Shown here: positions 37,557 to 51,253 of the stretch, piece after piece | Layout of the letters: every line of letters begins with the position of its first letter | Numbering within the stretch: position 1 is the stretch's first letter | Source of the DNA: an uncultured Clostridia bacterium | GTDB lineage: Bacteria; Bacillota; Clostridia; TANB77; CAG-508 | Direction of reading: 5' to 3' | Length of the DNA stretch: 64,000 bases | Assembly (NCBI GenBank): GCA_948485625.1 | Contig: CAOMRW010000007.1 | Span: forward strand, 10,117 to 74,116 | Translations under genes and position numbers: made by a program | The notes under the pieces: model-generated | Databases searched by the model: none | Told to the model about the DNA's origin: nothing | The model's input: the letters and a program-made list of their open reading frames with translations, nothing else

Positions 37557-38105
37557 TTAATTACATTCATTATTAGTTTTTTCACAAATCTCTGGTGGCT
37601 GTTTAAAACTTAGATACCAACTAATACCATTTTGATTTTCGTTTATAGCATTTTGCCTTTCTTCTAATTCACAGAATGTTTGAGGTGGGGGGACAATAAC
37701 AGGTTGCCCAGGCATCCAGTTTGCAGCAGTAGAGCCTTTACTACAATCAGCCATTTGTAATGCTTGAACTGTTCTTATAATTTCAGGTATGAATCTACCA
37801 ACATTTAATGGATAAATCATAATTGTTCTTATAATTTGTTTATCATCAATTATAAAAACATTTCTAACTGTTTCTGTTGTACTTATATCATTTGAAATCA
37901 TTCCATACTTTCTTGCGATTTGACCGCTTCTATCTGCAACAATAGGGAATGGAAGTTTAATACCAGTTTTACAATATATATCATATATCCATGCTAAATG
38001 AGATGGATTGCTATCAATACTTAATCCTAAAAGTTCTGTATTCATTTGCTGAAAATATGTATAAGCTCTTGAGAATGCTATCATTTCTGTTGTACAAACA
38101 GGGGT
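37557..38105 (-). pseudogene. peroxiredoxin (Prx6/1-Cys-like), C-terminal 182 codons, separated from its 5' part by the integrated element
   Basis: Minus-strand reading from 38105: TPVCTTEMIAFSRAYTYFQQMNTELLGLSIDS...IVADRSGQIARKYGM...VFIIDDKQIIR. It has no promoter or start of its own upstream of the Cys. Confidence 0.85.
38098..38105. repeat. 8-bp att core, left copy (attL)
   Basis: ACAGGGGT, identical to 51246-51253. Corresponds to codons T-P-V of the peroxiredoxin. Confidence 0.75.
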
Positions 38106-38229
38106 TACTCTATATTCAATTTTCTAACTTTATTAAATATATAATGCTATATAAGAAACTAGAAAAAAATAGGTGAATTTGCAGTACTAAATAATAAATT
38201 GAAAAATAAATTGAAAAATGTTAAAATAG

Positions 38230-38258
38230 TTGAAATTTATGACGAAATTTGTTATAAT
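38230..38258 (+). promoter_or_regulatory. candidate sigma-A promoter of the cargo operon
   Basis: TTGAAA (38230-38235), 17-nt spacer, TATAAT (38253-38258). Confidence 0.5.
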
Positions 38259-38341
38259 ATAGGTATTGATTTTTAAATATATAAGGTTTAATGTAAGACC
38301 TTAAAAAACTAAAAATATTATAAAAGGGAAGGTAAGTATTT

Positions 38342-47949: not shown

Positions 47950-49501
47950 ATGAAAAGAGTAGGATGTTTATATAGAGTTTCTACAAAAAAGCAAACATAT
48001 AATAATGATATTCCTGTGCAAAAGAAAGCATGTAGACAATTTATACAAAAAAGAGATGATTGGATACTCACTAAAGAATACTTAGAATTAGGAGTTTCTG
48101 GTTACAAATTAGGTGAAAAAGAAAGAGATATTTTAAAAACCATAAAAAGAGATGTAGCAAATAATAAAATAGATATTTTACTTGTTTTTATGTTTGATAG
48201 AATAGGGCGTAGAGAAGATGAAACACCATTTGTTGTTAAATGGTTTATTGAACAGGGAATAGAAGTCTGGTCTGTTAATGAAGGACAAAGGCAAATAAAA
48301 GATAATTACGATAGACTAATTAACTATATTACATATTGGCAAGCTCAAAATGAAAGTGAAAAAATTTCAATAAGAGCAAGAGAAAAAAGAGTACAACTAA
48401 CTAAACAAGGAATATATATGGGGAATTATGCACCTTATGGATATAAATTAATAGAAAGTGATATGATTACTAAAATAGGCAAAAGGAGAAAAATTCTTAC
48501 TATATTTGAAGATGAAGCAAAAATAATAAGAACAATATTTCATTTAATTGCAAATGAAAAATATGGAACAGATAAAGTTGCAATTTATCTAAATGTAAAT
48601 GGATATAAAAGAAGAAAAAAAGAAGTACTTTGGGATAATAATATAATAAATGAAATAGTAAGAAACCCAATATATAAAGGATATGTAACATTTGGAAAAA
48701 GAAAAAAAGATACAGAAGGAAATATAAGAAGCAAAAAAGAAAAGTGGACAATTTCAGATGTAGCAAATTCTGATATTATAATAGTTTCAGAAACTATATG
48801 GAAAAAAGCGAATGATTTAATTGATAGTAGAACAAGAAAAGGGAATAAAATATTAAGATTACTTTCAGGTTATACAAGATGTCGGATATTGTAAGGATTA
48901 TATTGTTCCAAAAGGCAAGACAAAATATTGTTATATGGTTTGTAAAGGAAAACAAAAAACAGGACATTGTGAATATAATAGAAATTATAGAGTTGATGTA
49001 TTAGAAGAGATTGTAAAAAAAGAAATTAAGCAATATTTAAATACATATAAAAAAATTGATTTAAAAAAATCAATTATTAAAAAAACTGAAAAAATATTAA
49101 AAAAAGATGAAAAGATTAGACTATTAAAACAAAGAATAAGTTATTCAGAAAATAGACTAATAGAATTAAAAAAAGAAGTAATATCAGCATTAATGTCAAC
49201 AAATGAAAATAACAACAAAATAATTAATGAAAAATTTGATAAAGAAAATCAAAATATGAAAAAATTAAAAGAAGATTTACAAAAGTTAGAAGAAAAGATT
49301 GATAATGACAATATAAAAATAAAGCAATTAAAGGAATATATACCTAACTGGAGTACAGAATTTGAAGAATCATCATTAGAAACAAAAAGAATAATTTTAG
49401 AAAAATTAGTTGATAAAATATATTTATATAATGACAAAGTAGAAATTATTATAAAATATCCAATCTCCAAAATAATTGAAACTGAAAAGGAGAGAATATA
49501 A
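47950..49501 (+). pseudogene. large serine recombinase, split by an apparent 1-nt insertion near 48883
   Basis: N-part VGCLYRVSTKKQ (catalytic Ser), resolvase and recombinase domains, ending ...SGYTRCRIL*. The next frame continues GYCKDYIVPKGKTKYCYMVCKGKQKTGHC plus a coiled coil. Removing C48883 restores a zinc-ribbon colinear with the paralogue downstream. Confidence 0.75.
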
Positions 49502-51143
49502 TAAATTGAACATAAAAAAAGTAGGGTGCTTATATAGAGTTTCTACACTAAAACAAGTTGAGAAAAACGACATACCAATGCAAAGAATATCATGTGAAAA
49601 CTTTATAAAATCACAACCTAATTGGAAACTAACAAAAGAATATGTTGAATTAGGGGTATCTGGATATAAAATAAGCGAATCAAAAAGAGATGCTTTGCAA
49701 GATATGAAAAAAGATGTACAAAATAAAAAAATTGACATCTTGCTTGTTTTTATGTTTGATAGAATTGGAAGAAAAGAAGAAGAAACCCCTTTTGTTGTTG
49801 AATGGCTGATAGACAGAGGAATAGAAGTCTGGTCTGTAAAAGAAGGACAAAGAAAAATTGAAAACAGAGCAGATAAACTAATAAATTATCTTACATACTG
49901 GCAAGCAGGAGGAGAAAGTGAAAAAACATCCATAAGAGTTAGAGAAGTACAAAAACAGATGGCTGAACAGGGAATATTAACATATGGAGGCAAAAGAAAT
50001 GAACCTTATGGATATAATTTTATTAAAAGTGGGATTTTAACAAAAAAAGGAGTAGAAAGGCAGAAACTTATAATTAATCAAAAAGAAGCCGAAATTGTAA
50101 AAGATATATTTGAATTGTATGCCAAAAAAGGATATGGAATAGGAAGAATTGCTAAATATTTAAATGAAAAAGGGATAAAACCTAGAAGAACTGAACTTTG
50201 GAGTGTATCAACTGTTGGAGCAATGCTTAATAATCCAATATATATGGGGTACCCAGCATATAGAAAGAAAACAACAGTAAATGCTCAGGTTGCAAAAAAA
50301 CAATCATTCGAAAATTGGATTTTACCAGAAAAGAAAAGATTAGATATCGCAATTATAAGTGAAGAATTATGGTACGAAGTAAAAAAAATTAGAGATTATA
50401 GGAATTTAAAAAATAATATAGATAAACAAAATAATGTAGATATAAAACCAAGACAAACGAATTCTAGATTATTGTTTATAGGAATGTGTAAATGTGGTGA
50501 ATGTGGATATGCTTTTATGACATCAGGCTCTAAAAAGAAAAGAAAAAATGGTGAAGTAATAAAATATGATTATTATAGATGTTCAAGTGTAAGAAATTCT
50601 AATTTGTGTAATCTTGAAAATAAAAATATAAGAAAAGAACAATTAGAAGAAGTTGTATTAAAATGCATATATGATTTTTTAGATAGTTTGGAGAAAATGG
50701 ATTTGTCTAAGGAAATAAAAAAGAGATTATTGAATAATTCTGGAAATGAGGAAAAACAACTAAAAAGTAGTATAGAACAATTAAAAGAAGTTGAAGAAAA
50801 TCTTATGGTTTTGAAGAATGAAGTTATAAAAACTATTACTGGTAAAGGCAACTTTTCAGAGAATTTATTAAATGAACTTATTACTGAAAAAGAAAATCTA
50901 AAATTAAAGTTAACTAATAAAATTAAAAGTATAGAAAATAAAATAAAACAAAAAAATCTAGATGAGGAAATGTTACAAATTAAAGATAAAATACCTATAT
51001 GGAAAGAAGAATTTAAAGAAGCGAATATTGAAGTACAAAAAATGTTGTTGTCTGAAATTATAAAAGAGATTAGAATTTTTAATGATAGATATGAGGTTGA
51101 CTTTAAAATACAATTAAATGATTATATTAATAAAATATTCTGA
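49476..51143 (+). CDS. large serine recombinase (intact)
   Basis: VGCLYRVSTLKQ catalytic motif, recombinase domain (EPYGY, IYMGY), zinc ribbon CKCGECG...YYRC and C-terminal coiled coil. The real start may be the TTG at 49506 (LNIKKVGCLY). Ends 103 nt from attR. Confidence 0.88.
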   Translation: MKLKRREYNKLNIKKVGCLYRVSTLKQVEKNDIPMQRISCENFIKSQPNWKLTKEYVELGVSGYKISESKRDALQDMKKDVQNKKIDILLVFMFDRIGRKEEETPFVVEWLIDRGIEVWSVKEGQRKIENRADKLINYLTYWQAGGESEKTSIRVREVQKQMAEQGILTYGGKRNEPYGYNFIKSGILTKKGVERQKLIINQKEAEIVKDIFELYAKKGYGIGRIAKYLNEKGIKPRRTELWSVSTVGAMLNNPIYMGYPAYRKKTTVNAQVAKKQSFENWILPEKKRLDIAIISEELWYEVKKIRDYRNLKNNIDKQNNVDIKPRQTNSRLLFIGMCKCGECGYAFMTSGSKKKRKNGEVIKYDYYRCSSVRNSNLCNLENKNIRKEQLEEVVLKCIYDFLDSLEKMDLSKEIKKRLLNNSGNEEKQLKSSIEQLKEVEENLMVLKNEVIKTITGKGNFSENLLNELITEKENLKLKLTNKIKSIENKIKQKNLDEEMLQIKDKIPIWKEEFKEANIEVQKMLLSEIIKEIRIFNDRYEVDFKIQLNDYINKIF

Positions 51144-51245
51144 AAAATATAGAATTTTTAGATTTTTCGGAATATTTTATTAATTTTAATTAAATAATAG
51201 TACAAGCTATTTGGTTATAGTTTTAAAATTTTGAAAAATACATAT

Positions 51246-51253
51246 ACAGGGGT
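51246..51253. repeat. 8-bp att core, right copy (attR)
   Basis: ACAGGGGT, identical to 38098-38105. Confidence 0.75.

Follow-up and report, generated by a model that had tools for sequence, protein, structure and literature searches.

Introduction

Large serine recombinases (LSRs) drive several elements that interrupt a gene used in sporulation and restore it upon excision. These include gin, which lies in gerE of Bacillus cereus ATCC 10987 and is moved by GirC together with the directionality factor GirX (PMC5595907), skinCd, which splits sigK of Clostridioides difficile and involves the recombinase CD1231 and the small protein CD1234 (PMC5025042), SPbeta in spsM, with SprA and SprB (PMC4191935, PMC5499854), and yin in yabG of Clostridium botulinum (PMC10747680). 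CD1234, the directionality factor of skinCd, is an orphan protein of 72 amino acids (aa) with an isoelectric point (pI) of 5.5 and is controlled by sigma-E and SpoIIID (PMC5025042). Here, a probable further case is described in a 64-kb stretch of DNA (hereafter, the window) from an uncultured Clostridia bacterium (contig CAOMRW010000007.1, assembly GCA_948485625.1), where an insert with two LSR genes separates the two parts of a peroxiredoxin gene (prx). The window has 26% G+C and the element equals its flanks in this respect. The insertion is precise, a similar module is found at the same position of prx in many other gut Clostridia, and, as judged from the promoter motifs at the locus, the element is probably a member of the class that intervenes in sporulation genes.

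A Peroxiredoxin Gene Split at Its Active Site

The interrupted gene runs on the minus strand. Its 5' part (codons 1–48; 51254..51397) is followed by element sequence, into which the present open reading frame (ORF) reads on up to a stop at 51215, and its 3' part (codons 49–230 and the stop codon; 37557..38105) begins with ACC CCT GTT TGT, encoding T-P-V-C. When 51397..51254 and 38105..37557 are joined in silico, a single ORF of 693 nt and 230 aa with a PVCTTE site is obtained. A preliminary description of the locus had proposed this ORF, as well as a split in the region of the peroxidatic Cys and an insert of 13,148 bp, and the coordinates and the breaks in the alignments described below bear out all of these points. 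The joined product matches the Pfam families AhpC-TSA (1e-33) and 1-cysPrx_C (1.8e-06) and scores above the cut-off of the NCBIfam peroxiredoxin equivalog NF009668 (263.6 versus 211 bits). With an AhpC-TSA fold, a PVCTTE peroxidatic site, and the C-terminal domain of 1-Cys peroxiredoxins, the interrupted gene is predicted to encode an enzyme of the 1-Cys (Prx6) type.

The insert is bounded by the octamer ACAGGGGT at 38098..38105 and 51246..51253, as the preliminary description had reported for both junctions. Neither strand of the window has a further copy; about 0.24 occurrences would be expected by chance in 128 kb of sequence, as estimated from the base composition (26% G+C). The uninterrupted site was sought in related genomes, for which the best 80 of 392 relatives in a scan with one genome per species were fetched (loci L001–L080; other related loci carry higher L numbers). 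These come from uncultured gut Clostridia, including the records Clostridium sp. CAG:575, CAG:389, 26_22, and 28_17, and prx is uninterrupted in all 80, with amino acid identities of 74–93%. Blastn alignments of the window with these relatives halt exactly at 38105 and resume at 51246, so that they overlap by the 8 bp of the repeat, and the synteny of the right flank extends further in L014 and L016. The insertion is, thus, precise and conservative, at a site that is uninterrupted in relatives.

The joined peroxiredoxin retains 89 of the 90 residues that are invariant in the clade and all 53 residues conserved in at least 90% of its members, and the leave-one-out median for the intact genes is two differences. 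This lack of decay implies that either the insertion is recent or prx is still in use.

Since the window apparently derives from a metagenome assembly, a chimeric contig that joined unrelated DNA inside prx might have produced the same picture, but nothing else spoke for such an artefact. However, the right junction is identical in L081 (Logan ERR6844498), an independent assembly found in three samples, which argues that the junction in the window is no assembly chimera. The position of the junction is repeated in more than 10 other elements and hosts, and an exact 8-bp repeat with symmetric arms would also be foreign to such a join. The independent assembly and the recurrent position refute an artefact, which is left with a negligible chance, and it is very probable that prx was split by a recombinase-mediated insertion.

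Attachment Sites and the Point of Exchange

All members of the family share, in the sense of prx, the attachment (att) layout TT(T/A)GAAA - 15 nt - ACCCCNGT - 9 nt - TTTCAAA, which can also be written as TT(T/A)GAAA-N15-[AC]CCCNGT-N9-TTTCAAA. In the window, the element-side P arm (TTAGAAA plus 15 nt; 38106..38127, minus strand) lies beside the first copy of the core, with the same geometry as in L166–170, L172–177, and L247–248, and the P' arm (9 nt plus TTTCAAA; 51230..51245, minus strand) lies beside the second copy and is kept in L081–L087, L172–177, and L246. The 32 nt between the outer motifs centre between the A and the C that open the core. With 15 nt on one side of the 8-bp core and 9 nt on the other, the arms are symmetric about the AC at its edge and not about its middle. 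The imperfect attP-like dyad that the preliminary description saw around the core is, therefore, real in its TT(T/A)GAAA and TTTCAAA arms but is centred on the edge of the repeat. The sites have the imperfect inverted repeats around a central dinucleotide and the short identity between attP and attB that characterize the att sites of serine integrases.

The alleles of the core point to the same dinucleotide. Where the core meets the 3' (C-terminal) part of the gene, its position 6 varies together with the downstream host alleles (L166/167/170; L172–177), while at the 5' junction core position 7 carries the allele of the element, since the version in L086, ACCCCAAT, equals that of the intact internal attP of L166. 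A host-derived position 6 and an element-derived position 7 place the crossover at AC. The predicted exchange thus falls on the opening dinucleotide of the Thr49 codon, which is invariant and lies two codons ahead of the peroxidatic Cys, with crossover dinucleotides at 38104–38105 in the first core copy (GT on the plus strand, AC in the sense of prx) and at 51252–51253 in the second (GT on the plus strand). Excision would produce a rejoined attB junction reading ...GGAGACTTTACCCCTGTTTGTACAACAGAA... and an attP junction on the circle reading ...AAATACATATACAGGGGTTACTCTATATTC....

The elements of the family are found in two orientations. In the window, L081–087, and L246, the recombinase end adjoins the 5' fragment of prx, whereas in L166–177 and L247–248 it adjoins the 3' fragment. 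The DNA of L246 agrees with that of L247 at 99% identity as far as 47 nt past the recombinase stop codon, where the two diverge. There, L247, L248, and L166–170 keep a complete 46-bp attP-like site in inverted orientation (L166 11745-11790; L247 3611-3656; L248 3325-3370; compare L246 11733-11756), and the junction itself is made by a second P arm that comes after this site. These relatives thus bear two inverted attP-like sites and have integrated through one or the other, giving both orientations with respect to prx. An inversion of prx had also been considered as the cause of the two orientations and was discarded in favour of this explanation. The element in the window has only one attP-like site.

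The Recombination Module

The recombinase genes occupy the end of the insert that adjoins the 5' part of prx. The second, LSR2 (49506..51143, plus strand), starts at the TTG at 49506 and encodes 545 aa with intact Resolvase, Recombinase, and Zn_ribbon_recom domains (PF00239, PF07508, PF13408) and a match to a PHROG integrase family (1.5e-82); the database copy of this protein is also 545 aa long. The first, LSR1 (47950..49501, plus strand), would encode 517 aa if an inserted C at 48883 were skipped, and would then have the same domain set; as written, it consists of two ORFs, 47929-48894 and 48935-49501. The two large serine recombinase genes announced by the preliminary description are, therefore, both present, but the first one is divided by this single inserted base. 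Both proteins contain the motif VGCLYRVST, and their N-terminal halves are 52% identical. On these domains, the att sites, and the precise insertion, the insert is classed as a serine-integrase (LSR) integrative element.

Directly upstream of LSR1, in every family member seen, lies a conserved small ORF (47659..47886, plus strand; 75 aa in the window) that is a candidate recombination directionality factor or regulator. It has no significant family in Pfam, NCBIfam, or PHROG, and its AF2 single-sequence model, a four-stranded sheet with a helix, has a pLDDT of 63 and was judged too weak for a fold search. With L082 as the reference (86% recombinase identity to the window), the ratio of non-synonymous to synonymous substitution rates (dN/dS) is 0.145 for the small ORF, 0.13 for LSR2, and, for LSR1, 0.19 upstream and 0.30 downstream of the shift.

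The extra base of LSR1 (AGA TGT C GGA TAT TGT; 48877-48894 in the window) is shared by the window, L081, and L082, while all other LSR1 orthologues are intact. Over the 17 codons after the shift, the comparison of the window with L082 yields five synonymous and one non-synonymous differences in the shifted frame, versus one and five in the 0 frame, an excess with a binomial p of ~0.001 by our own estimate (19% of sites synonymous). The 0-frame codon at the shift, CGG, is used four times in 17,334 codons (0.23 per 1000), whereas the +1 codon, GGA, is used 602 times (34.7 per 1000). The earliest ATG, GTG, or TTG in the downstream frame lies 17 codons past the shift, and the zinc ribbon regains its CxxC motif when the C is skipped. 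A conserved site, a rare 0-frame codon, purifying selection in both frames, and no start codon that would explain the downstream frame are what is expected of a programmed +1 site. Thus, in the simplest reading, LSR1 would be made via a +1 frame shift at UGU-CGG-A, with CGG as a "hungry" codon, although it may instead be a two-piece or recently dead gene. If true, a conserved +1 frameshift would be, as far as we know, an unusual way to dose a recombinase.

A pair of recombinases recalls the SCC cassettes, an analogy also drawn in the preliminary description. In that case, the pair would act like CcrA and CcrB, integrating and excising the element at a low constitutive rate without a directionality factor, and the small ORF would be unrelated to directionality. 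CcrB is indeed the best NCBIfam similarity of LSR2, the cargo of the family is exchangeable and cassette-like, and CcrAB reportedly work without a directionality factor and accept non-canonical pairs of sites (PMC5595907), which could fit the relatives with two attP-like sites. However, the NCBIfam scores are far below the cut-offs (CcrB 140 bits versus 900, CcrC 81 versus 900, CcrA 37 versus 700), the target is codon 49 of prx and not rlmH/orfX, and the host is no staphylococcus, so that membership in the SCC group fails on both the recombinases and the integration site. Moreover, the small ORF matches the recombinases in its degree of conservation, is under purifying selection, and has a conserved promoter of its own. 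A cassette working in the SCC manner is, therefore, improbable, and SCC serves as a fair analogy for the paired recombinases only.

A Family of Elements at the Same Site

LSR2 has more than 90 database clusters at identities of at least 55%. In every context fetched, with LSR2 identities of 99, 86, 74, 70, 69, 62, and 59%, the same module was found, formed by a 72–76-aa ORF, an LSR1 of 507–526 aa, and an LSR2 of ~545–576 aa. LSR1 and LSR2 make up two distinct orthologous groups that are ~41% identical to each other and always occur together. Wherever host flank is visible, in more than 10 other elements and hosts, the module adjoins a prx fragment cut between ...GDFTPV and CTTE.... Thus, the module recurs with varied cargo at the same position of prx across many gut-metagenome Clostridia.

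The cargo of L172–177 comprises an MmeI-type restriction-modification system, an HNH protein, a histidine-kinase-like ATPase, and an AAA_14 ATPase, and the whole element measures 11.8 kb in L173 and L175; L166–171 carry DUF6076, sigma-like, and DnaB_C genes. A response regulator with a Spo0A_C domain and a tyrosine recombinase are present in L083, L086, L168, L246, and L249 (Spo0A_C at L083 2917-3684, L086 2899-3606, L168 2912-3616, L246 3663-4352, and L249 4325-5026). In these full-size relatives, both stand at a fixed distance from the recombinase pair and, therefore, look element-borne. A Spo0A-like regulator also lies ~1 kb upstream of many recombinases of 34% identity (e.g., L109 9029-9313). 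Mobile elements with a copy of the master regulator of sporulation merit attention.

The identical recombinase protein P0007 is found in at least three host backgrounds with synonymous differences in prx, which indicates that the element has been mobile recently. In a recombinase-profile scan of metagenome contigs, the only close relatives were L086 and L087; the identity of the others did not exceed 42%, and a prx fragment was absent from them. A scan of viral contigs gave no recombinase match above 46% over the full length and, thus, nothing that would link the family to a known phage.

The state of prx in some relatives deserves a comment. The 208–216-aa "AhpC" ORFs of L166–170 were considered as cases in which a co-directional relative supplies a replacement 5' end; this was rejected, since they are element-host hybrids that lack Prx residues 1–48. 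In L172 (13305-13412), L174 (11874-11981), L176, and L177, the 3' part of prx stops after about residue 84 and is followed by accessory genes for Abi_2, AAA_15/AAA_21, NTP_transf_2, and sigma factors, which suggests a second insertion or deletion within prx in these four loci.

Sporulation-Type Promoter Motifs around the Element

The -10 consensus strings in the Bacillus subtilis literature are CATACA-T, CATA---TA, and CATNNTA. In C. difficile, sigma-E and sigma-K promoters have a common -10 and differ in their -35 (ATA versus AC), and cotE, which encodes a spore-coat peroxiredoxin-chitinase, has a mapped sigma-K promoter (PMC3789822). The upstream regions of prx were compared with 677 upstream regions from the same loci and with shuffled sequences as a second control; orthologous promoters are not independent observations. 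The sigma-K-like pattern AC-N15-17-[CA]ATA-NNN-TA, 18–32 nt before the start codon, precedes prx in 67 of 81 loci, as opposed to 11.4% of the controls and ~4% of the shuffled sequences, and typically takes the form GTAAC(C/A)...TCATA(C/T)NATAT. A strict CATA form is found in 37 of the 81 loci versus 1.5% of controls, whereas a sigma-A-like pattern is found in none of them versus 7.8% of controls. The version of this clade-wide motif in the window is GTAACA - 16 nt - TAATATTATAT (51423..51454, minus strand).

In about 70 of 80 relatives, prx is adjoined, usually just downstream, by a gene for a Cys-rich DUF1540 protein of 54–56 aa that resembles CdeA. CdeA is the DUF1540 exosporium protein CD2375 of C. 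difficile (PMC7677010), CD2375 belongs to the sigma-G regulon (PMC3789822), and DUF1540 is among the domains that best discriminate endospore formers (PMC2955703). The sigma-G/F-like pattern G[ACT]ATA-N16-19-CA[TA]ANTA precedes this gene in 44 of 70 loci versus 0.1% of controls, and its textbook form reads GAATA-N17-CATA(C/A)TA. In the window, the gene (28369-28533, minus strand; CdeA-like, 54 aa) and its promoter GAATA-N17-CATAATA (together 28369..28600) lie ~9 kb from prx, and the gap between both holds helicase, ABC/FtsX, and Na/H exchanger genes.

A sporulation-type motif belongs to the recombination module as well. All nine distinct elements have (T/A)AATA(T/A)(T/A) - ~15 nt - CATA(C/A)A(A/T)T, a sigma-E-like pattern, upstream of the small ORF, while the relaxed form ATA-N14-18-CATA within 10–40 nt of the start occurs in 4.4% of control upstream regions. 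The window has GTATAAA - 16 nt - CATAATCT (47547..47575, plus strand) upstream of the small ORF.

More distant recombinase relatives (38–46% identity) include ones, of 38–41% identity, that adjoin fragments of sigK in a skin-like arrangement (L093 5767-6018; L207 10912-11490; L208 11621-11797; L231 9815-9988). In L251 (14146-14469), a 107-aa fragment of a Mn-catalase of the cotJC type is present, and the related L252 (9382-10858) has an intact cotJA-cotJB-cotJC set. Further sporulation genes may be interrupted in these metagenomes. A tblastn search of all 3.6 Mb of fetched sequence with SspA, SpoIIID, Spo0A, and SigK queries from B. subtilis found matches near the distant recombinase relatives only and none in the prx-host clade.

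Possible Excision in the Mother Cell or a Plain Genomic Island

The motifs suggest that prx serves sporulation as a mother-cell gene of the sigma-K type, and the peroxiredoxin domain of CotE in C. difficile offers a parallel. The element was integrated by site-specific recombination at the AC of the Thr49 codon, and in this case the disruption would be costless in growing cells because the gene would be needed in the sporulating mother cell. During sporulation, a sigma-E-type promoter would turn on the small ORF, acting as the directionality factor, together with the recombinases. Recombination between attL and attR in the terminal mother cell would then excise the element in circular form and rebuild prx without error, while the genome of the spore would retain the element. 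The skin-like character proposed in the preliminary description gains circumstantial support from the sigma-K-like motif of prx, the sigma-G-like motif of the DUF1540 gene, and the sigma-E-like motif of the small ORF, but no excision product was found. The coupling of excision to sporulation stands, in our judgement, at even odds.

Taken as a whole, the reading would be that of a widespread non-phage family of gut Clostridia, parked in a sigma-K-dependent peroxiredoxin gene of the spore surface, which excises in the mother cell by means of a sigma-E-driven small directionality factor and an obligate pair of recombinases, one of them made in the clade of the window via a programmed +1 frameshift at the rare CGG. 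Some relatives would use two inverted attP sites for insertion in either orientation, and the cargo ferried between species would include functions for host interaction (a dockerin-anchored IgA1-protease-like enzyme), defence, and a Spo0A-like regulator. For this full combination, we give a probability of roughly 0.35.

Several observations weigh against it. Metagenome contigs were searched for exact copies of the attP circle junction, with 0 matches; this null result is uninformative rather than negative, since circles formed in mother cells would be transient. No intact prx more than 91% identical was found among 5.8 billion proteins, and no empty site of the same species was found among the 80 genomes, whose intact loci are all too distant from the host flanks to count as the same species. 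A scan of ~36 host ORFs in the window yielded none of the sporulation-specific Pfam families, and a literature search on sporulation in the presumed order of the host returned nothing usable. Sporulation of the host is read from promoter motifs only. Such motifs come cheap in DNA of 26% G+C, and resemblance to a motif is not expression. In the subclade of the window, moreover, the -10 of prx is (C/T)TAATATTATA, without the leading C of CATA, and the site also scores as a weak sigma-70-like match (9/12); the motif of the small ORF in the window stands 83 nt from the start codon and not ~16–22 nt, and the product of this ORF has a pI of 7.9, whereas most members of the family have a pI of 4.7–5.5. 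LSR1 may simply be broken in the window. Finally, any broad-host site-specific element would also target the most conserved stretch of a conserved gene.

The last point leads to an ordinary genomic island moved by serine recombinases. Such an island would target the active-site codons of prx only because no other DNA of this widespread gene varies so little, so that many hosts are sure to offer an attB; the loss of prx would be tolerated in a strict anaerobe, and excision, if any, would serve horizontal transfer only. The first and second codon positions of the attB region are indeed invariant across relatives, the cargo is of the accessory type (restriction-modification, Abi, and HNH genes in relatives and a surface protease in the window) and has in the window a strong sigma-70-like promoter of its own, and an identical recombinase occurs in several host backgrounds. 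The searches for a circle or an empty site (in metagenome contigs, the protein collection, and the 80 genomes) and for sporulation genes in the window came out as this explanation would have it. However, it leaves unexplained that the conserved promoter of prx is sigma-K-like and not sigma-A-like, that the neighbouring gene has a sigma-G-type promoter, that the recombination module has a conserved promoter of the ATA/CATA type, and that full-size relatives carry Spo0A-like genes. The absence of decay in the split prx is also not accounted for by an island of this kind, although a recent insertion would explain it too. We regard the plain island as a serious, if tentative, possibility.

The two outcomes differ in what they would mean. 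If mother-cell excision is true, a new target (peroxiredoxin) and a new recombinase architecture would be added to developmental DNA rearrangement, which would be extended to the human gut microbiome, and no such family would have been described before from gut Clostridia that are uncultured and have small genomes; in that case, genes that gut spore formers use in the mother cell only would be a routine hiding place for mobile elements. If it is a plain island, it adds to the serine-recombinase islands a case whose target is unusually well defined, useful but ordinary. The element and its relatives carry host-relevant traits, with an IgA1-protease-like surface enzyme in the window and anti-phage systems in relatives. 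On the practical side, the family is a source of serine recombinases that occur naturally in pairs, for which 46-bp attP and attB sites are defined and a directionality factor is proposed.

Cargo of the Element and Neighbouring Genes

Apart from the recombinases, a domain scan of the ORFs of the insert found no phage, conjugation, or replication domains, as the preliminary description had stated. The cargo lies at the other end of the element, on the plus strand, and is preceded by a promoter-like site of the sigma-70 type, TTGAAA-17-TATAAT with TG (38230..38258, plus strand), which with 11/12 matches to the consensus is the best of 91 regional sites. The first cargo gene (38342..39307) encodes a predicted secreted protein of 321 aa with a signal-peptide-like N-terminus, a cohesin domain (Cohesin, 2.3e-07), and a C-terminal type I dockerin (Dockerin_1, 9.5e-06). 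The second (39360..47294) encodes a predicted secreted protein of 2644 aa with an N-terminal dockerin (Dockerin_1) and a zinc metalloprotease region of the M26 (IgA1-protease/ZmpB-like) type (Peptidase_M26_N, 3e-38). Residues 951–1983 (~1030) align to structures of the IgA1 protease of Streptococcus pneumoniae (PDB 6xjb/7jgj/6xja; E 2e-27), and the HExxH motif is HEFEH at aa 1871. Among the NCBIfam Zmp models, the protein is ZmpB-like, with scores far below the cut-offs. With an M26 N-terminal region and an HExxH domain, it is assigned to peptidase family M26.

The host chromosome in the window encodes a dockerin protein and a cadherin-like protein (11390-13078 and 13099-14466), and the dockerin repeats of the element protease and those of the host share 76% DNA identity (repeat family D7). 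This likeness suggests that the cargo of the element could plug into an existing cohesin-dockerin surface system.

A GC-rich hairpin (47426..47528) with 49-bp arms of 100% complementarity lies between the cargo and the recombination module and belongs to a host-wide repeat family. It is 97% identical to a copy at 37466-37557, just outside the element and directly 3' of prx. Long, near-perfect GC-rich hairpins of this family stand in the window at 28236-28327, 37466-37557, and 47426-47528, and related arms (6144-6190 and 6993-7039) flank an ORF for an IS200-like Y1 transposase (6202-6990). The family, common to the element and its host lineage, probably represents REP/MITE-like terminators. Other host genes in the window look accessory (9649-10242, 21134-22651, 22678-23571, and 4428-6143); they include a PemK/MazF-like toxin, a protein with Schlafen/AlbA_2 and HATPase_c_4 domains beside a DUF3226 protein, and a DnaB_C-like protein that adjoins the IS200-like gene.

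Comparison with Known Systems

SCCmec resembles the element in that two paralogous large serine recombinases encoded in one operon, CcrA and CcrB, move a composite and variable cargo into one chromosomal site. However, SCCmec is a staphylococcal cassette that enters the 3' end of rlmH without inactivating this gene, works without a directionality factor, and is not linked to sporulation. CotE of C. difficile (PMC3789822) provides a precedent for a 1-Cys-type peroxiredoxin that is made from a mother-cell sigma-K promoter and placed on the spore surface, although it is a fusion with a chitinase, whereas the product of the split gene is a stand-alone peroxiredoxin of 230 aa, with a putative association with the spore.

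SPbeta in spsM (PMC4191935, PMC5499854) and yin in C. botulinum yabG (PMC10747680) are serine-recombinase elements in sigma-K-dependent, late mother-cell genes of the spore surface, with precise reconstitution of the gene and a directionality factor under a sporulation promoter. They are, however, (pro)phage-like elements for which PCR or Southern blot demonstrated excision, whereas the element in the window has no phage genes and carries a secreted protease as cargo.

The likeness to skinCd (PMC5025042) lies in the combination of a large serine recombinase and a small unannotated protein, since CD1234, with 72 aa and a pI of 5.5, matches the small ORF of the family in size (72–76 aa) and, for most members, in pI (4.7–5.5). 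A sigma-E-type promoter precedes the small gene in both, as a motif only in the element of the window, and skinCd splits a mother-cell gene that excision restores, as the element of the window would do if prx is such a gene. Nevertheless, no sequence similarity was detected between the small protein of skinCd and the small ORF of the window, the pI of the latter is 7.9, and skinCd is prophage-like with a single recombinase. Moreover, its target is a sigma factor itself, so that its excision times development, which that of an element in a coat-type peroxiredoxin gene would not.

The closest described relative in kind is gin in gerE of B. cereus ATCC 10987, with GirC and the directionality factor GirX (PMC5595907). 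Sporulation-specific excision was demonstrated for gin and is deduced for the element in the window; the target is a regulator in one case and a peroxiredoxin in the other, and the host of the latter is an uncultured gut Clostridium. The active GirC is encoded apart from the girA-girB pair, whereas the element in the window has the pair only, with one member frameshifted. On the other hand, both are non-prophage islands without transfer genes that lie within a small coding sequence, both have a short core in an imperfect inverted repeat (9 bp in gin, 8 bp here), both have several serine recombinase genes, including a two-gene operon (girA-girB in gin), and in both the gene content varies around a conserved set of recombinases, with restriction-modification cargo in the element or its relatives. 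None of the published accounts of gin, skinCd, SPbeta, and yin (PMC5595907, PMC5025042, PMC4191935, PMC5499854, PMC10747680) lists a peroxiredoxin as a target. New in the element are its peroxiredoxin target, the paired recombinases that are accompanied by a conserved small ORF, a putatively recoded recombinase, and, in relatives, dual attP sites.

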